Source of the DNA: Leptospira sp.
Lineage (GTDB): Bacteria; Spirochaetota; Leptospiria; Leptospirales; Leptospiraceae
DNA: 64,000 nucleotides
NCBI GenBank assembly: GCA_034439575.1
Contig: JAWXAQ010000002.1
Coordinates: 192,001-256,000, forward strand
Direction of reading: 5' to 3'
The position numbers and the translations under genes were made by a program. The notes under the pieces were generated by a model. That model was not told the origin of the DNA and did not search any database. It worked only from the letters and a program-made list of their open reading frames with translations. Below, in pieces: positions 29,837-38,463 of this stretch; within the stretch, counting starts at the first letter, position 1; each line of letters starts with the position of its first letter.

Positions 29837-31729
29837 ATGAACAATTTAATTGAATTTTATTTAAGCTTAAAAACTAAATATAAAGATAAACCAGCATTCG
29901 CTTCGAAGTTACATGGAAGCAAACAATTTCAAACAAAATCTTACGCAGAGTTAATCGATTTATCATTAGCTTTTAGTGAGGGTATTTCTTTTTTAAATGT
30001 CGGGGATAGAGTTGGGTTTTTCGCTGATAACAGTTTTGAATGGATGGTTACTAGTATAGGAATTACTTTCGCTGGTTGTGTCGATGTCCCAAGAGCTAGT
30101 GATGTAACAGAACAAGATATTGAATTTATTCTGAATCATTCGGAAGCGAAACTCGTGGTAGTTGAAAATACAAATCTAGCACTTCGTGTTTTAAATCTTC
30201 AATCAAAATTGAATCATTTAAAATACATCCTGATATTGGATGGCGACTTACCAAAACAATCTTCTAAATTGGAAATACTATTGTACAAAAATATAATAGA
30301 GACTGGTCAAAAGAAATTAAATATCAGTAATTCAAATATCCAAAATATTATAAATCAAGTATCTCCGAATGATTTATTTACTTTGATTTATACTTCTGGA
30401 ACGACAGGAACTCCCAAAGGTGTTATGCTAACTCATGCGAATTTATTATCGCAAATAGAACGTACGCCTGTTACATTATCAACCCAAGATTGTGCAATAT
30501 CAATTTTACCTATCTGGCATATATTCGAACGAACATTTGAATTATTTTCAATGGCAAATGGAGTATGTACGTATTATACAAATATTAGAAGTCTCAAAGA
30601 GGATTTAGCCATTGTTAAGCCTACATTTATGGCATCAGCTCCTAGATTATGGGAAAGTATATATGGGGGAATCCTTGGGAACATTAGCAAGTCTCCAAGA
30701 ACCAAACAGGTGATGTTTGAAATTGCCACAACTTTAGGAAAAATCCAGTTTCAGACAACGCAGATATTATTCGGAAATGATTTACGACTAGATAATCTTT
30801 CTATATGGATTCGTTTATATTCCCTATTCACAGCATTTTGCTTATGGGCATTTACCTACCTACCATACTTATTATTTGATGCACTTGTCTTAAGCAAAAT
30901 TCGTAATGCCACGGGTGGCCGATTGAGAGGTTCTGTTTCAGGCGGTGGGGCTCTCCCATTTCATATTGATGAATTTTTTAATTCGATAGGGATTCCTGTT
31001 TTAGAAGGTTATGGTATGACGGAAACCTCTCCAGTGATCGCAGTGAGAAGCTTTTCTTCGTTAGTTGCTGGAACTGTGGGTCCATTATATATAGATACTT
31101 CTTTAAGACTAGTCGATATAAAAACTGGTGAAGTTTTTCTAGATACAGAGATCGGAAAAATAGTGTATGGAAAAAAAGGAGAGATCCATGTCAAGGGCCC
31201 GCAAGTTATGGCTGGCTATTATAAAAATCCAGAGGCAACTAACAAGGTATTGAAGGATGGATGGATGAATACCGGGGATTTGGGTTTAATGACTGCAAAT
31301 GATTGTCTAAAAATTGTAGGTCGGACAAAAGAGACAATCGTGTTACTTGGTGGGGAAAATGTGGAACCTGTTCCCATTGAAGCAAAACTTTTAGAATCGG
31401 AATGGATTGATCAGATTATGGTCGTTGGTCAAGATAGAAAATTCTTATCTGCTTTAGTGGTTCCAAATCAAATTCTAGTACAAAATCTAGATGTGGATTT
31501 ATCGCAGGGAAAAAATATAAATAAATTAAAAGAAAAAATCCAACAAGAAATTAAATCAAAGATCAATGCTGATACTGGGTTTAAAAGTTTTGAAAGAGTT
31601 GTTGATGTTTCCATTCTCACCAAACCTTTTGAAGTCGGAGATGAATTGACAGCTAAATTGTCCCTGAAACGTCATGTCATCCTTGAAAAGTACCAAGACT
31701 TGATAGAAAATATTTATAAAGGGAAATAA
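29837..31729 (+). CDS. Long-chain fatty acid-CoA ligase (AMP-dependent synthetase)
   Basis: IYTSGTTGTPKGVML, EGYGMTE, GWMNTGDLG, GENVEPVPIE. Confidence 0.93.
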   Translation: MNNLIEFYLSLKTKYKDKPAFASKLHGSKQFQTKSYAELIDLSLAFSEGISFLNVGDRVGFFADNSFEWMVTSIGITFAGCVDVPRASDVTEQDIEFILNHSEAKLVVVENTNLALRVLNLQSKLNHLKYILILDGDLPKQSSKLEILLYKNIIETGQKKLNISNSNIQNIINQVSPNDLFTLIYTSGTTGTPKGVMLTHANLLSQIERTPVTLSTQDCAISILPIWHIFERTFELFSMANGVCTYYTNIRSLKEDLAIVKPTFMASAPRLWESIYGGILGNISKSPRTKQVMFEIATTLGKIQFQTTQILFGNDLRLDNLSIWIRLYSLFTAFCLWAFTYLPYLLFDALVLSKIRNATGGRLRGSVSGGGALPFHIDEFFNSIGIPVLEGYGMTETSPVIAVRSFSSLVAGTVGPLYIDTSLRLVDIKTGEVFLDTEIGKIVYGKKGEIHVKGPQVMAGYYKNPEATNKVLKDGWMNTGDLGLMTANDCLKIVGRTKETIVLLGGENVEPVPIEAKLLESEWIDQIMVVGQDRKFLSALVVPNQILVQNLDVDLSQGKNINKLKEKIQQEIKSKINADTGFKSFERVVDVSILTKPFEVGDELTAKLSLKRHVILEKYQDLIENIYKGK

Positions 31730-31755: not shown

Positions 31756-32703
31756 TTAATTCCCAGAGCTAATCCTAGTTACATTCACACTAATGGTTCT
31801 TTCTGAACTTTGACCACTAAAGTCAGTAGCTTTTGTTTTAATCAGATTTTCTCCCGTTTTTAAATTCACTACACCTACAAGATATCTATCCTTAAAAAAC
31901 AAATCATCAAACGTATAACCATTATAAGTTTTCCATTTCCCCTTTTCAAAATGGATGCTATCAAACTTAGTTTTTTTAACAACCTCGCCATTAAAAATAA
32001 ATTCTAAATCACGAATCCCACGACGTTGGCTATTTTTCATTCCCCCATCAAATATACTCACTGTTAGTGGGAATGCTTTGGATACATTGATATTATCACC
32101 ATCGTTAATATTGGTGTATGTTTCGCCCACGTGAATAAATAAATTCGCAATTTGAGGTGGCATGATATCTTCTAATTTTGGCAGATAACTGAGAGGATCT
32201 AGGAGTGTTTTACCATAGTCTTTACCGAGGACAAAATGAAGGTGTCCACCACTTGAGTGCCCAGTATTTCCTGAAATGCCTATCGGATCTCCAGATTTAA
32301 TAGTTTTGTTTGAGCGAATATTCTCATGTCGTGAACCGGCCAAGTGATAGTATCCGCTAATATAACTATCTTTATGAGCGATCCAAACGATATTCCCTGA
32401 CCCACGTTCATCTTCGAAAGGATTGTCTTCGGCATAACGAGAATACAACACATAACCGTCTGAAAGACTATGTACTGGCTGTAAGACGGACGAAATATCC
32501 AAACCATTATGAAAGTGGTCTTTACGTGATTCTCCGAATGTGCTTGTAATCAGTGGGGCGAGGTCTAAATCTTTAATCGGCCATTGAAAGTTAGGTTTGG
32601 TATCTTGAGCAAAAAGACTATAAAATGAAAAATAAACAGAAAAGGAGATTAAAAAGAAAAGAAAACTTGCCACTTTGAATTGATATAGAACACTACTTTT
32701 CAT
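31756..32703 (-). CDS. M23 family metallopeptidase
   Basis: HFHNGLDI (HxxxD), GYYHL, GNTGHSSGGHLHF; hydrophobic signal segment; exact start uncertain. Confidence 0.88.
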   Translation of the reverse strand: MKSSVLYQFKVASFLFFLISFSVYFSFYSLFAQDTKPNFQWPIKDLDLAPLITSTFGESRKDHFHNGLDISSVLQPVHSLSDGYVLYSRYAEDNPFEDERGSGNIVWIAHKDSYISGYYHLAGSRHENIRSNKTIKSGDPIGISGNTGHSSGGHLHFVLGKDYGKTLLDPLSYLPKLEDIMPPQIANLFIHVGETYTNINDGDNINVSKAFPLTVSIFDGGMKNSQRRGIRDLEFIFNGEVVKKTKFDSIHFEKGKWKTYNGYTFDDLFFKDRYLVGVVNLKTGENLIKTKATDFSGQSSERTISVNVTRISSGN

Positions 32704-32748
32704 ATTTATGAAAATCTTTTCTTCGGGTTCATTTCGGGAAACAACATA

Positions 32749-33666
32749 ATGTCTTTGGTGACTCATTCAAATGAAGAAATATTGCAATTGGTCCAAAAGT
32801 GTGGGACAGGTGATATTGAGGCCCTTCGCCGATTTTTCGATTTATATTCAAAGGATATTTACAACTTTCCCATTCGTGTCTTTCACCTTGCAGAAGATGA
32901 CGCATCCGATTTTTATATTTATGCTTTTGAAAGGTTAAAATCTGGAAAACGATTCAATAGTTTTGTCGGAAAATCGAGTTTTAAAACTTGGTTTTTTTCA
33001 GTCCTCCGCAATCTGCTGATTGATTGGCAGAGAACGAAACGAGAATTAAAAATTCAATCCCTCAATAAATATAATAAGGACGGAGTAGAATATAACACGA
33101 TCGAAGATGAACCTGATTTACGTCCTGACGCTCGTCTCAAAGCTGAGGCACTTTCTGAAAAATTTCAATTTGCCATTCATGATATTAAAATAGAAAACAG
33201 AATCGTTTTCAAACTATCTTTTATTTATTATCTACATTTAGATCCCGAAGAAATACAATTTATCGCTTCAAAAAATGGGATTTCCATCGAAGAAGTCAAA
33301 TTGGAAATTCTTCGTTTAAGGGAAGTTATGTCAGAGAAGGAAGAAGAGAATATCAAACTTGAAGACAAGATAACTTCCTTATATTTGAATATACTAGATT
33401 TAAAAGAACAACAAAGATTAAACGCCAATGGCAATTCTTCAGAAGCGATTCATTTACGGGAAAGATTGGAACACTCTCTTCATAAGAAATATGAACAGAG
33501 AAAGAAATTGATCGAAAAAAAGCAAAGAGGTCATTTTTTAGTACGAACACCTTACCGTGAAATTTCCCGAATTTTGGGTGTTTCTGAGGGCGGAGTGAGC
33601 GTAACTTTGCTTAGAGTGATGGAAAAAATTCAAAAAAAGTACAAATTTTTTAATGAAGAATCCTAA
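32749..33666 (+). CDS. ECF-type sigma-70 family RNA polymerase sigma factor with large region-4 insertion
   Basis: Region 2: GDIEALRRFFDLY...DDASDF...SSFKTWFFSVLRNLLIDWQR; region-4 HTH: PYREISRILGVSEGGVSVTLLR. Confidence 0.88.
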   Translation: MSLVTHSNEEILQLVQKCGTGDIEALRRFFDLYSKDIYNFPIRVFHLAEDDASDFYIYAFERLKSGKRFNSFVGKSSFKTWFFSVLRNLLIDWQRTKRELKIQSLNKYNKDGVEYNTIEDEPDLRPDARLKAEALSEKFQFAIHDIKIENRIVFKLSFIYYLHLDPEEIQFIASKNGISIEEVKLEILRLREVMSEKEEENIKLEDKITSLYLNILDLKEQQRLNANGNSSEAIHLRERLEHSLHKKYEQRKKLIEKKQRGHFLVRTPYREISRILGVSEGGVSVTLLRVMEKIQKKYKFFNEES

Positions 33667-33707
33667 AATTTTTCGTCATAATATCTTAAGATTGGAGTAG
33701 GCAGAGA

Positions 33708-34439
33708 ATGAAAAAAGCAGATATGTGCGATACCGATTGCTCCAAAGAGAAAATCCGTGAGTGGTTTCTTTCAGGGAAAGAAATTTCTAGTGAATTGTTA
33801 GTTTCTTGTGATGAATGTTTCCAGGAATTTACGGCTTGCGAAGAGAGCATAGTATCCCTATTTCCAGAGCATACAATTGTAACTTCTTCGCCCCAATTTG
33901 CTGCGTTCTATGAAGAACTAGATTTAGCAAAGGCAGAGAAGGCCATGTCAGTCACACACGAACTTCCCGATTTTTTAAAACACTATACTTCGGAAAATTT
34001 GGCTTTGCCTGAACGTAAAGATGCGCTACTGATTCGCCTCTCTCAAAAAGGAATCCAAGTCATAAATTCGCTTTTAGAGACAGTAAAAGTAGTGGAATCA
34101 ATGACTCCAATGCCGATCCTTCGCAATGCCGTAGATGCTATGTCACCTGACCATACTTCGGTGATCTTTGAAGAAACCGTTTCCAATGACCAAATATTTT
34201 ATTACCAAATTGTCAAAGAAACATCTGATGACATTTATCTAAGTGTGAAAGCTCAATCTAGTATTCCGAATTTGTTTCATCAAGTGAACCTTCGTAAGGA
34301 TGGAAGATTTATTTTATCGAGTAAAATTGCAGTAGATGGAATGGCAAGTTTTGCTGGTCTAAAAGCTGGGAATTATACTATAGAATTTCAAGGTGATGGC
34401 CAAGCAAAATCATTTGACTTAAGTATACTTGTAGGGTAA
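33708..34439 (+). CDS. Putative soluble anti-sigma factor (N-terminal Cys/zinc-finger-like, C-terminal beta-sandwich)
   Basis: Immediately downstream of the sigma gene with GGAG RBS; N-terminal C-x3-C ... LVSCDEC; no TM; C-terminal DGMASFAGLKAGNYTIEF. Confidence 0.5.
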   Translation: MKKADMCDTDCSKEKIREWFLSGKEISSELLVSCDECFQEFTACEESIVSLFPEHTIVTSSPQFAAFYEELDLAKAEKAMSVTHELPDFLKHYTSENLALPERKDALLIRLSQKGIQVINSLLETVKVVESMTPMPILRNAVDAMSPDHTSVIFEETVSNDQIFYYQIVKETSDDIYLSVKAQSSIPNLFHQVNLRKDGRFILSSKIAVDGMASFAGLKAGNYTIEFQGDGQAKSFDLSILVG

Positions 34440-34449
34440 TCTGCTATGT

Positions 34450-36267
34450 ATGCTTTCTCTTATCATTGATCGCGTTGGGAATGTAAATATTTTCAATGTT
34501 CTAGACGGAAATATTCCTGGAGAAGAGTCACACATTCAATCAACGATCGACGATGATCTGATTTTAGAATATATCAATGAAGTTGAGAAACTCGTTCGAG
34601 TTTCCCAAGCAGTTCTCAATCATTCAAATAACATGGTCAATGCGGATATCCTTCAAGATCTGCGTATTTTAGGCGAAACTTTTTATAAACAATTTTTTCC
34701 TGAGTCCATCATACACAAGTTAAAGACCACACAAAGAAAAAGCATACATTTTAATATTGATCCCACATTGGCACTAATTCCATGGGAGTTGCTTCATGAT
34801 GGAAATTCGTTTTTATCTGATCATTTTCGCATTGGCAAAACGATTCGAGGAGGTGTTCACAAATCACCTCATCGCCCGAACCAAATCATTAAAATGTTAA
34901 TCATTGCGGATCCTACAGAAGATTTGCCTGGAGCACAAAAAGAAGGGGAGGCGTTATTTACAATTTTAAGTCAAAAAGTTCCTTCTCATTTACTAGAATT
35001 GGAATATATCGGCGGTCGGCAAGTCACCAAACTAAAGTTACTTTCTTTGATTAAAGACAAACATATCATTCACTACTCTGGACATTTACATTTTTCGGAC
35101 AATTCTTTAGAGAATGGATGGCTTTTATCTGATGATAAAATTTTGAAAGCAAGAGAAATCAAATCATCAGGAATTAGTACAGATCTCGTTTTTTCAAATT
35201 CTTGTATGTCCGCAAAGACTTCTGGAAAAAAAATAAATACTGACATTTTAAACCAACATGCAGGTGCTTTTTTAACCGCTGGAATCAAATCGTTTATTGG
35301 AACCAATTGGGAAATACTGGATAACCAAAGAACGATTGATTTTACCATCAGATTTTATACTTCACTTTTTGCACAAAAATCAGTGGGTGAATCATTGTAC
35401 TTAGCTAAAGAATTTGCGAGAAGGAATTTTTCATCACATGACCTAACATGGGCAAATTATTCTCTTTTTGGAAATCCTGATTTTGCATTAATTTCCGAAC
35501 AAAGTTCCATACTACCTTTACAAAAATTTTTGAATCCTTCGCAAGTTTGTGATTTATATCCTACACCCATTGCCAAAGCATATTCTAAATTTCTAATGAA
35601 ACAAAAATCAAATTCCGCCGAATTAGAAATCCTCGAATCTGCAGTTAAGGTTTTTGAATCCTTAAGCCAAGTCGTTGGATTGATCGTATTTAGTGATCAC
35701 AAATTTCATTCTATGGATAAAGCGATTCCGAATAACCCTGATGATGCGCTTAATTTAAGAAAATGGTGGGAGTTGGTATATAGCTGTTTATGGGATTTTC
35801 AAAAATTAAAAATCTCCACTTTCATGGACGCCATCACTGAAAAATTAAACCAACAAAAAGATACTATTTTTAAAATTGTGAATTGGCTTGAGTCCTGGGA
35901 AGATAAAAAAATTCAAAAGGAAGAATATGAATCCTATTTGATAATATTTCAATTTTTCATTGATAATTTATTATTCGATTTGAAAGAACTTGAGAATGTT
36001 AACATCTTACTCGTTTCAGAAAATCAAAATCCACATTATTATTTTAAGGGCATCAAACCTACATACGGATCGATCTCAAATCCAGGTGCCAAATCTTCTT
36101 TGAATGATTTGATCTCGGTTTACAAAGGTTCGCTTGTACTGTATCATGATACAAAAAAATGTATCATACCCTACGCCACTTATTTTAAAGAAAGAAAAGA
36201 ATCGGGTGATTTGGAATTGGTTTTTAATGGTCTACTGCCATCAAAAATGGAGAAAAGTTCGGCTTGA
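34450..36267 (+). CDS. CHAT domain (caspase-like, clan CD) protease
   Basis: LALIPWELLHDG, LIIADPTEDLPGAQKEG, IIHYSGH (H212), LVFSNSC (C252), FIGTNWEI, WANYSLFG. Confidence 0.9.
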   Translation: MLSLIIDRVGNVNIFNVLDGNIPGEESHIQSTIDDDLILEYINEVEKLVRVSQAVLNHSNNMVNADILQDLRILGETFYKQFFPESIIHKLKTTQRKSIHFNIDPTLALIPWELLHDGNSFLSDHFRIGKTIRGGVHKSPHRPNQIIKMLIIADPTEDLPGAQKEGEALFTILSQKVPSHLLELEYIGGRQVTKLKLLSLIKDKHIIHYSGHLHFSDNSLENGWLLSDDKILKAREIKSSGISTDLVFSNSCMSAKTSGKKINTDILNQHAGAFLTAGIKSFIGTNWEILDNQRTIDFTIRFYTSLFAQKSVGESLYLAKEFARRNFSSHDLTWANYSLFGNPDFALISEQSSILPLQKFLNPSQVCDLYPTPIAKAYSKFLMKQKSNSAELEILESAVKVFESLSQVVGLIVFSDHKFHSMDKAIPNNPDDALNLRKWWELVYSCLWDFQKLKISTFMDAITEKLNQQKDTIFKIVNWLESWEDKKIQKEEYESYLIIFQFFIDNLLFDLKELENVNILLVSENQNPHYYFKGIKPTYGSISNPGAKSSLNDLISVYKGSLVLYHDTKKCIIPYATYFKERKESGDLELVFNGLLPSKMEKSSA

Positions 36268-36968
36268 GTCTATGCCATCCAGATGAGGGTTCTGTATCCT
36301 GTGGTGCTTGTTGTGGACTTTTTAATTTAAAGCTAGATACAAACGGATATAAGACCTTACTCTCCGAGCGCACGTTAAACTTCCATTCATCTGTAAATTT
36401 TAATGAACGGCATACCATAGCCGCATATAGACAAGATCGTGAAAAAATAGAACAATCATTTTTAAAAAATGATGAAACTACATACAATTGCCCTTACCTT
36501 GGTTATGTGGACAAAAAGTCATCAAAAATAGGATGTATGATACATCCTATTTTCACAGGTGATCCCAAAAGTCAGAATTTTTCCATTTATGGAACATCCA
36601 TTTGTCAAGCCTATGATTGCAAAAACAAAGAACACCTTGCCTCTACACTAATTGAATCATTTATTAATAGAGTCGCGAGAGATAGTGTGGAATATTCGCA
36701 TCTTGCTTCAGACCATATACTTTTCTTTGTGATTCAAAATTGGTTAAGTATAAAATCTTGGAGTTTATCGGAAGGGTTTTTGAAATTTGAAAGTTTGATA
36801 TTAGAGATTTTAGAATTGAGACTAAAGAAAATTTCTAAATATTTTCCCACATCCTTTGAAATTCGTTTTGAAAATTTCATTTCTGAAGAGGAAATTTATT
36901 CTTATTTTTATGAGTTGTTAGGGGAAGATATGACAGCTAAAATGAAAAATGCCCCAGCGAGAGTTTAA
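36264..36968 (+). CDS. Cysteine-cluster protein (YkgJ/CxxCxxCC-like Zn/Fe-chelating)
   Basis: LC...SCGACCG, CPYLG, GCMIHP, ICQAYDC; TTG start overlaps the CHAT stop (TTGA). Confidence 0.6.
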   Translation: MSLCHPDEGSVSCGACCGLFNLKLDTNGYKTLLSERTLNFHSSVNFNERHTIAAYRQDREKIEQSFLKNDETTYNCPYLGYVDKKSSKIGCMIHPIFTGDPKSQNFSIYGTSICQAYDCKNKEHLASTLIESFINRVARDSVEYSHLASDHILFFVIQNWLSIKSWSLSEGFLKFESLILEILELRLKKISKYFPTSFEIRFENFISEEEIYSYFYELLGEDMTAKMKNAPARV

Positions 36969-36981
36969 CACTCACCAGGGC
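36945..36981 (-). terminator. Intrinsic terminator of the phasin-like gene
   Basis: Minus strand GCCCTGGTGAG...CTCGCTGGGGC, an 11-bp stem with three G-U pairs that form only on this strand, followed by ATTTTT. Confidence 0.7.
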
Positions 36982-37006
36982 TTTGCTTACAATCCAAAAG
37001 ATTAAA

Positions 37007-37273
37007 TTAAGCTTTTGAAGTTACAGAAGAAACTTTTTGTTTTGCTTCTTCTACAGTAGCATTTACTTTTCCAGCTAGAACTTCTAATTGAGAAATTCCT
37101 TCTTGAAGGTATTTTCTAAGGTTAACAGAAGTTTCGCTTTGGTCTTGTGCACCTTTCGCTGCAAGAGTTTGAAATTCAGTGTTCAATTTTGAAATCGCTG
37201 ATTCAGTTTCAGTTTTTACAGTAGTTACTGCGCCTAAGATAAAGTTTAATCCGTCTTTTACAACTTGTTCCAT
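37007..37273 (-). CDS. Small phasin-like helical protein
   Basis: 88 aa amphipathic; LNFILGAV...FQTLAAKG pattern; GAGG RBS; own terminator. Confidence 0.6.
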   Translation of the reverse strand: MEQVVKDGLNFILGAVTTVKTETESAISKLNTEFQTLAAKGAQDQSETSVNLRKYLQEGISQLEVLAGKVNATVEEAKQKVSSVTSKA

Positions 37274-37389
37274 TTTTCGGTTCCTCGTTTAAATGTTTGT
37301 GCATTGCACTATTCCTTTTTGTGCACTGCACCGAAAACGTCAACCTTATTTTTAACTTTTTTTACAGGCCTCAGAAAAAAAAATGTCAT

Positions 37390-38463
37390 ATGCCCAATGA
37401 GCCTTTTTTACCCATTTCCTGGACAAATTCCTCACTTCAATTATTGGACCAAAGGCTTTTGCCCCTAAAGAAGGTTTTTCTACACATTGAATCCCTAGAT
37501 GAGACAGTGTTTGCAATTAAAGAAATGGCTGTTAGGGGAGCTCCAGCCATTGCCATCACTGGAATTTTTGGTCTAGCCCTTGGTGCCAAGGCGAAATCGG
37601 GAAATGTAAGTCCGACTGATGTTAAGAACTTAATCAAAAAAATACATGAGTCTCGTCCGACGGCTGTTAACCTTAGTTATGCCTTAAAAGAAGCAGAAAT
37701 CCGCATTCAAAACAGTACTACTTGGGACTCCATTTATACAATTTGGGAAGCATTTGGCAAAGAGTTGATGTTAAATGATCTAAGCGACAATTTAAAATTA
37801 GGTGAAAATGGAATCAAATTGTTTGATCCATCGAACGAAGAATTTCATATTATCACTCATTGCAATACGGGTGCTCTCGCTACGGCAGGACATGGGACTG
37901 CCCTTGGTGTCATTCGTTCTCTAAGAGATGCTGGAAAAAAAGTAATCGTATACGCAGATGAAACTAGACCATTTTTGCAAGGTTCCAGGTTGACTGCATT
38001 TGAAATGATGGAAGAAGGTATCGAGTGTTATATCATCACCGATGGTATGTCTGGTTGGCTTATGAACTCACGTAAGATTGATGCCGTTATCGTTGGTTGT
38101 GACCGTGTGGCACAAAATGGAGACACAGCTAACAAAATTGGCACAATGAACTTAGCGATAGTCGCTAAAAACTTCCAAATTCCTTTTTATGTTTGTGCGA
38201 CAAAAGATAGTTTTGATCTGAATTTAGAATCAGGAAAAAGTATCCCGATTGAAATGCGAAGGGAAGAAGAAGTGACAAGGTTTGATTTTATTAAAAAAAG
38301 TGACGGTGAGGTTTATATGGAAGCTGGCATGACTTCACCACTTGGGGCAAGAGCCTTGAATCCTTCTTTTGATGTCACACCGCATTCGTTGATAACTTCT
38401 TTCATAACAGAATTTGGCTGTTTTCCTCCATCTGAAATTTCAAATCGTCTAAAACAAAGGTAA
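37390..38463 (+). CDS. mtnA: S-methyl-5-thioribose-1-phosphate isomerase
   Basis: LLDQRLLP, MAVRGAPAIA, SRPTAVNL, THCNTGALATAGHGTALG, ETRPFLQGSRLT. Confidence 0.95.
   Translation: MPNEPFLPISWTNSSLQLLDQRLLPLKKVFLHIESLDETVFAIKEMAVRGAPAIAITGIFGLALGAKAKSGNVSPTDVKNLIKKIHESRPTAVNLSYALKEAEIRIQNSTTWDSIYTIWEAFGKELMLNDLSDNLKLGENGIKLFDPSNEEFHIITHCNTGALATAGHGTALGVIRSLRDAGKKVIVYADETRPFLQGSRLTAFEMMEEGIECYIITDGMSGWLMNSRKIDAVIVGCDRVAQNGDTANKIGTMNLAIVAKNFQIPFYVCATKDSFDLNLESGKSIPIEMRREEEVTRFDFIKKSDGEVYMEAGMTSPLGARALNPSFDVTPHSLITSFITEFGCFPPSEISNRLKQR

Follow-up and report, generated by a model that had tools for sequence, protein, structure and literature searches.

Can a CHAT-domain protease that belongs to no CRISPR system switch on a sigma factor by cutting that factor's soluble inhibitor? 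The question is raised by four adjacent genes in a 64,000-nt stretch of DNA from Leptospira sp. (assembly GCA_034439575.1, contig JAWXAQ010000002.1, positions 192,001-256,000), which we call the window and whose own numbering is used throughout. The genes encode an extracytoplasmic function (ECF)-type sigma factor (gene 1), a soluble anti-sigma candidate (gene 2), a CHAT cysteine protease (gene 3) and a YkgJ-like Cys-cluster protein (gene 4); we refer to the first three as the trio, and their coordinates are collected in Table 1. An earlier note on this DNA, made from the sequence alone, had suggested that the protease cleaves the product of gene 2. We arrive at a related reading, to which we assign a probability of about one half: the trio would form a cytoplasmic, CRISPR-independent three-protein switch in which the CHAT protease cuts gene 2 at or near Arg139, and the sigma factor is freed. 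The observations that carry this reading were made in silico and comprise the protein identities, their conservation, their coupling and a predicted interface between the sigma factor and gene 2.

Identity of the sigma factor, gene 2 and the CHAT protease

The list of open reading frames (ORFs) places the four genes on one strand, with the same coordinates and tight spacing that the earlier note gave (41, 10 and -4 nt between genes 1 and 2, 2 and 3, and 3 and 4), and their start and stop codons were verified. A membrane-like segment is absent from all four proteins (0/4 by the 19-residue Kyte-Doolittle mean, maximum ≤1.37, with values of 1.01 for gene 2 and 1.37 for gene 3). The named relatives of the cluster proteins are Leptospira species.

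The assignment of gene 1 as an ECF sigma factor holds: it scores 116.1 bits against the NCBIfam model TIGR02937 (sigma70-ECF; cut-off 42.9), though its matches to the Pfam families Sigma70_r4_2 (20.9 bits, gathering threshold 25.7) and Sigma70_r2 (18.2 bits, gathering threshold 24) both fall under threshold. Its profile also matches SigW of PDB entry 5wuq with an E of 3e-7. At 305 aa the protein carries about 100 residues more than a compact two-domain ECF factor of ~170-200 aa. SigW-type models and the SigW of 5wuq align with it from the N-terminus to about residue 160-200, the SigW-type models stopping near 197, while the TIGR02937 match stretches over residues 24-297 although that profile has only 165 positions, and the Pfam r4_2 match lies at residues 267-294. 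From this pattern we infer that the C-terminal half may represent a duplicated helix-turn-helix (HTH). The same long build is seen in a 323-aa metagenomic sigma factor (locus L116).

The orthologue of this sigma factor at locus L036 is clustered at 90% with AAS68853.1, the accession of LIC_10225 of Leptospira interrogans (301 aa; PMC6941012), and by sequence gene 1 is the orthologue of LIC_10225. In the parts of the 2025 review PMC12655853 that we consulted, LIC_10225 is unclassified in the ECF Hub scheme and lies outside the ECF re-classification, the sole L. interrogans ECF factor of which this is said; two others are ungrouped. A lic10225 transposon mutant is listed in a transposon sequencing pool (PMC5100919, consulted in part). 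Our literature search found no functional study of LIC_10225, which full texts name in tables or lists only, and the full-text search found no mention of LIC10226 or LIC10227. Table 2 of PMC12655853 marks only LIC_12490 as shared with the saprophyte L. biflexa, yet the LIC_10225 orthologue is present in all 14 genera of the family that we sampled. SigX of L. interrogans, which we considered as the same sigma factor, was ruled out: it is a pathogen-only sigma factor with a membrane anti-sigma factor (PMC7708080).

Gene 3 matches the Pfam CHAT family PF12770 over residues 74-342 (E 1.4e-25, 90.7 bits), and the His212 and Cys252 dyad motifs pointed out in the earlier note are borne out by the alignment, in which both residues are invariant in 19/19 Leptospiraceae sequences against a mean column identity of 62%. 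This invariance argues for catalysis. Foldseek matches of the CHAT model in the PDB are led by SAVED-CHAT (8tl0, E 2.9e-7) and include Csx29 (7zoq), DdvA (8rw5/8rot), separase (5fc2) and metacaspases. By domain, dyad and predicted fold, gene 3 is thus a CHAT protease related to caspases and separases. The model has a mean predicted local distance difference test score (pLDDT) of 67.7: residues 1-143 are poorly modelled and residues 363-591 well (mostly 80-93). The latter form a C-terminal domain which is a candidate sensor or docking module. A sequence search with it returned 34 matches, all named ones from Leptospira or Leptospiraceae, and an Atlas look-up reached 0.83-0.85 only to unnamed clusters and gave no lead. 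The corresponding position in CHAT relatives is taken by TPR, SnoaL, cyclase, kinase or REC domains; the Pfam scan found no TPR in gene 3, in keeping with the earlier note.

The genome holds a second, unrelated CHAT protein of 452 aa (L002 1225-2583, G000:C30; PF12770 E 1.2e-13), with a hydrophobic stretch in its C-terminal part and no sigma gene beside it.

Gene 2 belongs to no Pfam or NCBIfam family and has weak matches to the Pfam families CarboxypepD_reg and SdrD_B. It contains Cys only at positions 7, 11, 34, 37 and 44 and has no hydrophobic segment. Its AlphaFold2 model (mean pLDDT 78.4) shows five N-terminal helices (residues 13-99) and a small beta unit (106-129), followed by a low-confidence loop and an immunoglobulin (Ig)-like beta-sandwich. 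A profile search of 1.84 billion representatives at E ≤0.001 gave 395 matches, among them many giant Ig-repeat proteins, matched by the last domain only, and a series of proteins of the same build and 210-310 aa. In a 48-sequence alignment of such relatives, HxxxCxxC, the motif of the zinc-binding anti-sigma (ZAS) domain, is present in 22 and CxxC in 27. One relative, P0145, matches Pfam zf-HC2 with an E of 5.1e-13; ten others gave no match at E 0.1, and a per-member scan with PF13490 at E up to 10 matched 2 of the 48, P0145 being the one identified. The window copy itself has no canonical HxxxCxxC, no His at -4 and no PF13490 match, so that the zf-HC2 search proposed in the earlier note came back empty.

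The description of gene 2 as a Cys-rich, zinc-finger-like protein therefore survives in part: four suitably placed Cys are present in this copy and the motif in 22/48 relatives, but the arrangement is noncanonical here and the CxxC or Cys cluster is retained in only 6 of 19 Leptospiraceae sequences. A Foldseek search for a known anti-sigma fold in the gene 2 model returned generic Ig folds only, and the profile of the ZAS-bearing relatives gave chance-level matches only against PDB sequences (FGF2, E 0.026). In our preferred reading, the N-terminal domain would derive from a zinc-binding anti-sigma domain.

ZAS anti-sigma factors (PF13490) are known in RsrA and ChrR types, and gene 2 could be a thiol/zinc redox sensor of the RsrA type, in which Cys oxidation releases the sigma factor and the protease is irrelevant to signalling. 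The zinc-site-like placement of C7, C11, C34 and C37 and the occurrence of the ZAS motif among the relatives would suit this, but we regard it as improbable: even the same-genus copies at L047 and L048 are without CxxC. As the motif is mostly lost while the rest of the protein and the protease are conserved, redox sensing cannot be the general mechanism.

Predicted complex of the sigma factor and gene 2

We wondered whether gene 2 is the cognate anti-sigma factor of gene 1, as the earlier note had it. A model of the complex of the two proteins scored 0.83, 0.83 and 0.81 in three runs, and the best of three controls 0.00. Among 80 solved complexes, 58 attain the mark applied to such scores, and among 110 mismatched pairs 2 do; these counts are a rough guide only, custom alignments having been used. 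The runs share at least 69% of their contacts, with a partner pLDDT of at least 74. In the predicted interface, residues 14-120 of gene 2 face residues 23-100, 142-217 and 248-299 of the sigma factor, with sigma-2 as the chief surface touched and with the extra part of the sigma factor also in contact. The best-defined contacts are made by gene 2 residues L90, P87, D72 and K75, of which P87 and L90 are invariant and D72 and K75 nearly so in the 19 Leptospiraceae sequences. Other invariant positions of gene 2 include R139 and residues within the beta-sandwich. R139 lies in the loop of residues 132-146, outside the predicted interface, and across the 48 wider sequences its context reads (V/P/I/A)-(A/S/P)-(V/T/L/F)-R-(S/G/N/A).

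Gene order agrees with the model. Gene 2 directly follows the sigma gene, in the same orientation, in 19/19 Leptospiraceae loci fetched, and at the loci of other spirochaete families it comes after a long-type sigma gene in 6 of 7 cases. Together with the ZAS motifs of its relatives, this adjacency and the complex model support the cognate pairing, and gene 2 probably holds the sigma factor inactive as its anti-sigma factor.

Conservation within the Leptospiraceae

The family sample consisted of 81 genomes from 14 genera, the genome of the window included. CHAT, gene 2 and a strong sigma orthologue (E 4e-73 or better) were each found in 80 of the 81. For synteny, 20 of the 80 other genomes were fetched, chosen across 12 genera, and a few others were compared by coordinates and by eye. 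The sigma gene, gene 2, CHAT and gene 4 follow one another in this order on one strand at all 19 trio-bearing loci, so the four-gene cluster is more than chance. The M23 peptidase gene lies divergently upstream of the sigma gene at 17 of these loci.

The twentieth genome, G016 (95% complete), is a clean loss: exactly the sigma gene, gene 2 and CHAT are missing (L051, G016:C16:22000-32000), while gene 4, the M23 gene and the 88-aa gene downstream are kept, with ~220 bp between gene 4 and the M23 gene. Decay of single genes also occurs. The sigma gene is split in two frames in G014 and G061 and bears stops in G029 (an internal TGA) and G015, and gene 4 of G008 contains a TAG; the decay sites, with that of the CHAT gene of G040 discussed below, are G040:C35:38946-40753, G014:C1:3028427-3029315, G061:C20:548104-548986, L035 3161-4078 and L042 449-1159. 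Overall, the trio is part of the core genome of the family and not a variable island.

Every experimentally studied CHAT-sigma link serves defence, and the trio could likewise be an anti-phage defence module that resembles the CRISPR-linked protease-sigma systems in purpose and form. We judge this highly improbable, since the cluster is core and keeps the same neighbours across 12 of the 14 genera. Moreover, no Cas1 was found in the genome (99.98% complete) and no tandem or repeat array in the 64-kb window, and the only PADLOC match was one to Cas5 at E 0.033, in which no matched stretch passed. No CRISPR link of the module was found, in agreement with the earlier note.

Occurrence beyond the family and coupling of the protease

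A sample of 301 genomes from the phylum, which as kin are not independent of one another, was searched for gene 2 at E ≤1e-5 and for CHAT at E ≤1e-20. A gene 2 relative was present in 53 genomes and this CHAT in 51: both in 50, gene 2 only in three (G086, G101, G113), CHAT only in one (G100) and neither in 247. The genomes with both come from four families.

CHAT adjoins the sigma-gene 2 pair in 3 of the 7 loci outside the family, in differing gene orders. At L087 a CHAT plus TPR protein of 750 aa is encoded downstream of gene 2; at L088 CHAT lies upstream of the sigma gene, with a Pfam score of 24.2 bits against a cut-off of 24; and at L089 a probable CHAT is likewise upstream, with just 37% in hhalign and with aligned His and Cys motifs. 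The pair stands without an adjacent CHAT at L083-L086 and L090-L092, and G250, G089 and G103 encode a full-length CHAT orthologue elsewhere in the genome.

A scan of a genome collection with the gene 2 alignment returned 16 loci in Turneriella and other Leptospirales metagenome-assembled genomes (MAGs), of which three have an adjacent sigma gene, followed by gene 2 (L090-L092), and none an adjacent CHAT. In five Turneriella-type loci with listed ORFs, the gene after gene 2 encodes 410-439 aa, and its product has a REC-HATPase_c build in the two that were scanned; the arrangement is found at L101 (5998-10939), L093, L094, L096, L098 and L105, and the third gene at L101, the one locus scanned for it, encodes a penicillin amidase. 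In each of the five Turneriella-type genomes searched, a single sigma orthologue (E about 1e-64 to 1e-73) is encoded elsewhere, as is a single full-length CHAT orthologue, with E about 1e-148 to 1e-152. This dispersed CHAT (L111-L115) directly follows the same acyl-CoA synthetase-like gene that is found upstream of the M23 gene in the window.

The order sigma, gene 2 homologue, CHAT recurs in an unrelated lineage, on three metagenome contigs which carry P0145 or near-identical copies of it (94-97% identity; L116, L118). Their sigma factor (323 aa) aligns with the Leptospiraceae sigma alignment at 99.7% in hhalign over columns 2-285, the extra part included. The zf-HC2-bearing gene 2 homologue overlaps the sigma gene by 4 nt, and 15 nt after it begins a CHAT of 697 aa (PF12770 E 7.1e-32; hhalign 99.9% to columns 2-350 of the CHAT alignment). 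This CHAT has 208 relatives at E ≤1e-20; among the 120 listed, few are named (Deltaproteobacteria, Candidatus Binatia), and C-terminal to their CHAT half come varied modules: TPR, SnoaL-like, adenylate cyclase, protein kinase, AAA or REC. Six further metagenome loci (L119-L124) are weak, with 28-36% identity over parts.

In one metagenomic protein, P0317 (983 aa), a gene 2 homologue and a CHAT form a single chain. Residues 13-271 correspond to gene 2, the Arg loop included (hhalign 99.0%, E 2.3e-18; 29% identity to P0145, E 2e-25; zf-HC2 E 2.2e-8), and the CHAT part follows directly (hhalign 99.9%), then a hydrophobic stretch and TPR repeats. If real, this fusion would be evidence of the Rosetta-stone kind for a joint function of gene 2 and the protease. 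A search with P0145 among longer proteins found no other fused forms, but it was insensitive and missed P0317 too. The coupling of CHAT to sigma and gene 2 that the earlier note saw at one locus is thereby extended by co-occurrence, by synteny repeated in several lineages and by one natural fusion; the neighbourhood comparison that it proposed, in Leptospira and beyond, gave the 19/19 loci of the family and the trio order of the metagenome contigs.

The main rival reading makes CHAT an output of the sigma factor. In it, an ordinary sigma/anti-sigma pair controls CHAT, and perhaps the YkgJ-like gene, whose products act on other substrates. ECF operons often hold downstream targets, and synteny alone cannot separate these from regulators (PMC7826278, in the parts consulted); in addition, the Turneriella-type CHAT stands apart from the pair just downstream of the acyl-CoA synthetase gene, and the seven pairs listed above have no CHAT beside them. 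We nevertheless find it unlikely that CHAT is an output. Such an arrangement gives no role to the invariant exposed Arg or the conserved Ig-like domain of gene 2, and it would leave a soluble anti-sigma factor lacking the Cys in 13 of the 19 Leptospiraceae sequences with no input. CHAT also lies upstream of the sigma gene in two spirochaete lineages, and P0317 joins it to gene 2 in one chain.

The protease might instead act on the sigma factor itself, trimming the extra coiled and second-HTH part as in a pro-sigma factor, or might be a non-catalytic partner that draws gene 2 away from the sigma factor by partner switching; we think either quite unlikely. The ~100 extra residues of the sigma factor would provide something to trim, and the REC-HATPase_c protein beside the Turneriella-type gene 2 is reminiscent of partner-switch modules. 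The dyad that is invariant in 19/19 sequences, however, speaks for catalysis, and the extra part is conserved and in contact with gene 2 in the model, which fits a permanent structural part better than a propeptide meant for removal.

Proposed mechanism and points against it

We return to the three-protein switch, which might work as follows. The N-terminal helical domain of gene 2 would hold the sigma factor by lying across sigma-2 and sigma-4. The CHAT protease, through His212 and Cys252, would be the input device, its signal probably being read by the lineage-specific C-terminal domain. Once triggered, CHAT would engage gene 2 by way of the conserved Ig-like domain and cut it within the exposed loop, either at the invariant Arg139 or next to it, this being the putative cleavage site. 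Housekeeping proteases would then clear the sigma-bound remnant of gene 2, setting the sigma factor free. Gene 4 and the divergent M23 peptidase gene are conserved neighbours to which the scheme assigns no part. The action of the protease on gene 2, the place of the cut, the signal and the regulon are the parts of this scheme that we infer.

Several observations weigh against the scheme. Cleavage at Arg139 would not touch the predicted sigma-binding residues 14-120 of gene 2, and a second degradation step must therefore be assumed. The pass of the complex model may be due in part to likeness, since sigma/anti-sigma complexes have been solved and the SigW of 5wuq is a relative in sequence. The N-terminal 143 residues of CHAT are highly conserved but poorly modelled, and no sensor function can be named for them. 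In G040 the CHAT gene is broken into two pieces with stops beside an intact sigma gene and gene 2, and G113 (88% complete) has the pair and no such CHAT at E 1e-5. Gene 2 adjoins neither a sigma gene nor CHAT in 13 of the 16 Leptospirales MAG loci, and the REC-HATPase_c neighbour hints at other inputs on the same anti-sigma factor. P0317 is a single record on a 3.9-kb metagenome contig, where the loss of a stop codon, or a faulty assembly, might give the appearance of a fusion. Finally, genes downstream in ECF operons are often targets and not regulators, the point on which the output rival draws.

Relation to known protease-sigma systems

Protease-gated release of a sigma factor from its anti-sigma factor is a classical principle. 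A link between CHAT and a sigma factor has been shown for type III-E CRISPR systems, and has been proposed for DdvA and for the ECF54 neighbourhoods. The comparisons below follow the parts of the cited sources that we consulted.

The trio resembles Craspase (Csx29, Csx30, Csx31 and CASP-sigma; PMC10028731) in combining a CHAT protease with a soluble inhibitor whose N-terminal domain binds an ECF-like sigma factor. Csx29 cuts Csx30 C-terminal to the sigma-binding N-domain, and further degradation of the fragment is invoked (PMC10028731); the proposed cut at Arg139 would likewise fall C-terminal to the sigma-binding domain, with degradation of the remnant before release. The differences are several: there is no Cas1 in the genome, no array in the window and no PADLOC hit (Cas7-11 was not searched for by name); CHAT is N-terminal here and followed by a non-TPR C-terminal domain, whereas Csx29 has TPR first and then CHAT; no counterpart of Csx31 is present; and the trio is a core cluster and not a defence island. 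Gene 2, which appears ZAS-derived and carries an Ig-like domain, is set apart from Csx30 by description, not by sequence.

In DdvA-DdvS of Myxococcus xanthus (PMC11506125), sigma-2 and sigma-4 are trapped by a zinc-binding anti-sigma domain which is tied to a His-Cys CHAT, with proteolysis as the proposed trigger. Unlike the two soluble proteins found here, DdvA is a single transmembrane polypeptide whose TPR-CHAT part is periplasmic, and RseP cleavage follows. Only the metagenomic P0317 is fused in a comparable way, in the order ZAS, Ig, CHAT, TM-like (a transmembrane-like stretch), TPR. In type III-B systems, the proteases CalpL (CalpL-CalpT-CalpS) and SAVED-CHAT (with PCaspase and PCc-sigma) are activated by a signal and a sigma-bound partner is cut (bioRxiv 10.1101/2023.06.23.546230), and SAVED-CHAT is also the best structural match of our CHAT core. 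There, cyclic oligoadenylates act through SAVED to activate the proteases (10.1101/2023.06.23.546230); we saw neither SAVED nor a cyclase here.

As is the case with ZAS anti-sigma factors, gene 2 is encoded just after an ECF sigma factor and has an N-terminal helical domain with a putative zinc site, and its relatives P0145 and P0317 match zf-HC2. The window copy differs from ZAS factors in lacking the His and a Pfam match, and in features that descriptions of ZAS factors do not include: a conserved beta unit, the Arg loop and the Ig-like domain. ECF54 factors are encoded near carboxypeptidase-, subtilase- and CHAT-domain proteins, and proteolytic regulation by CHAT has been suggested for them (PMC8999054); they are actinobacterial and are given without an anti-sigma factor (PMC7826278), and LIC_10225 is listed as unclassified. 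The word CHAT is absent from the main text of that re-classification paper (PMC7826278).

The idea is thus less new than the earlier note implied, because the DdvA and ECF54 links between CHAT and a sigma factor lie outside CRISPR and are already in print. In our search, neither this Leptospira cluster nor the pairing of a soluble ZAS/Ig anti-sigma factor with a separate cytoplasmic CHAT protease turned up in the literature.

Neighbouring genes and transcription signals

The CxxCC cluster that the earlier note reported for gene 4 is present (C13-x2-C16-C17, with a further Cys at position 4). A search of gene 4 for Pfam PF03692 at E up to 1 found no match; the Atlas places the protein in a cluster called 'YkgJ family cysteine cluster protein', a PF03692-bearing cluster at 0.77 is a lead only, and one orthologue carries the UniRef name 'Zinc/iron-chelating domain-containing protein'. 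It occurs in 81/81 genomes of the family, including the trio-less G016, and since it outlasts the deletion of the trio it does not count as an obligate part. The four-gene operon that had been proposed therefore holds as to gene order but not as an obligate unit.

The longest ORF of the M23 peptidase runs 18 nt into the start of the sigma gene, and the ATG at 32703 coincides with the onset of the conserved part and a hydrophobic N-terminus; by sequence, this is likely the true start. The spacer between the two genes would then be ~45 nt, so the promoter of each must lie inside the other gene. A regulatory connection between the peptidase and the sigma factor is a guess.

Scans of positions 32400-37400 gave no excess of promoters (21 against a shuffle expectation of 17.1 +/- 4.6) or terminators (4 against 2.9 +/- 1.9), and no shared ECF-type promoter was recognisable by eye upstream of the sigma genes. 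In four runs of one wastewater study, which are labelled metagenomic RNA-Seq and possibly DNA, 12-20% of the words of this DNA are present. Contigs from these runs (95-99% alike) span parts of all four genes, cross the gene 2/CHAT junction in 4/4 runs and are deepest over gene 2 (33703-34742); three of the four runs contain a contig that stops at 33703-33711, next to the gene 2 start codon. Contigs cannot show a transcript, and they give no evidence on transcript ends.

Table 1 Features of the cluster and its surroundings, in window numbering.
Feature	Position	Strand	Remarks
Gene 1, ECF-type sigma factor	32749-33666	+	305 aa, ATG start
Sigma-2 region (aa ~20-100)	32806-33048	+	aligns to SigW of 5wuq; invariant YNFP and VLRN..IDW blocks
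Atypical C-terminal half of sigma	33181-33639	+	sigma-4-like aa ~145-200, helical/coiled ~200-255, second sigma-4.2-like HTH ~262-297
Gene 2, soluble anti-sigma candidate	33708-34439	+	243 aa, ATG start
Cys cluster of gene 2 (C7, C11, C34-x2-C37)	33726-33818	+	variant of ZAS zinc site
Predicted sigma-binding helical region (aa 14-120)	33747-34067	+	complex-model interface; LDLxKAE and LPxYLKxY motifs
Low-confidence loop (aa 132-146), candidate protease site	34101-34145	+	pLDDT <50
Arg139 codon	34122-34124	+	Arg in 19/19 Leptospiraceae and 48/48 wider sequences
Ig-like beta-sandwich of gene 2 (aa 151-242)	34158-34433	+	pLDDT 86-95
Gene 3, CHAT cysteine protease	34450-36267	+	605 aa, ATG start
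Catalytic dyad His212, Cys252	35083-35085, 35203-35205	+	HYSGH ends at H212, SNSC at C252; codons verified
CHAT C-terminal domain (aa ~363-591)	35536-36222	+	helical bundle and beta part, no known family
Gene 4, YkgJ-like Cys-cluster protein	36264-36968	+	234 aa, TTG start
M23 peptidase, divergent, conserved neighbour	31756-32766	-	PF01551, 63 bits; likely start 32703 (MKSSVLY...)
AMP-binding acyl-CoA synthetase-like gene	29837-31729		two genes upstream of sigma, beyond the M23 gene
88-aa gene, no Pfam family	37007-37273	-	conserved downstream neighbour, 15/19 trio loci and deletion locus L051

Implications

Tentatively, and at something short of even odds, we would go further and regard the trio as the housekeeping counterpart of the CRISPR-linked relays from caspase-like protease to sigma factor. 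An Arg-directed CHAT would cut a ZAS-derived Ig anti-sigma factor at the invariant loop, thereby activating an atypical ECF sigma factor, while a swappable C-terminal module reads the signal; the principle would be old and general and only later borrowed by defence, and the trio would govern a core regulon in all Leptospira, pathogens included. If this is true, the relay would exist in soluble form and independently of CRISPR in the core genome of an entire bacterial family, and would have to be seen as a device for signalling in general, with immunity as only one of its uses. The scheme is also the first concrete hypothesis for LIC_10225, for which the Arg loop, the dyad and the predicted interface would be direct mutational targets.

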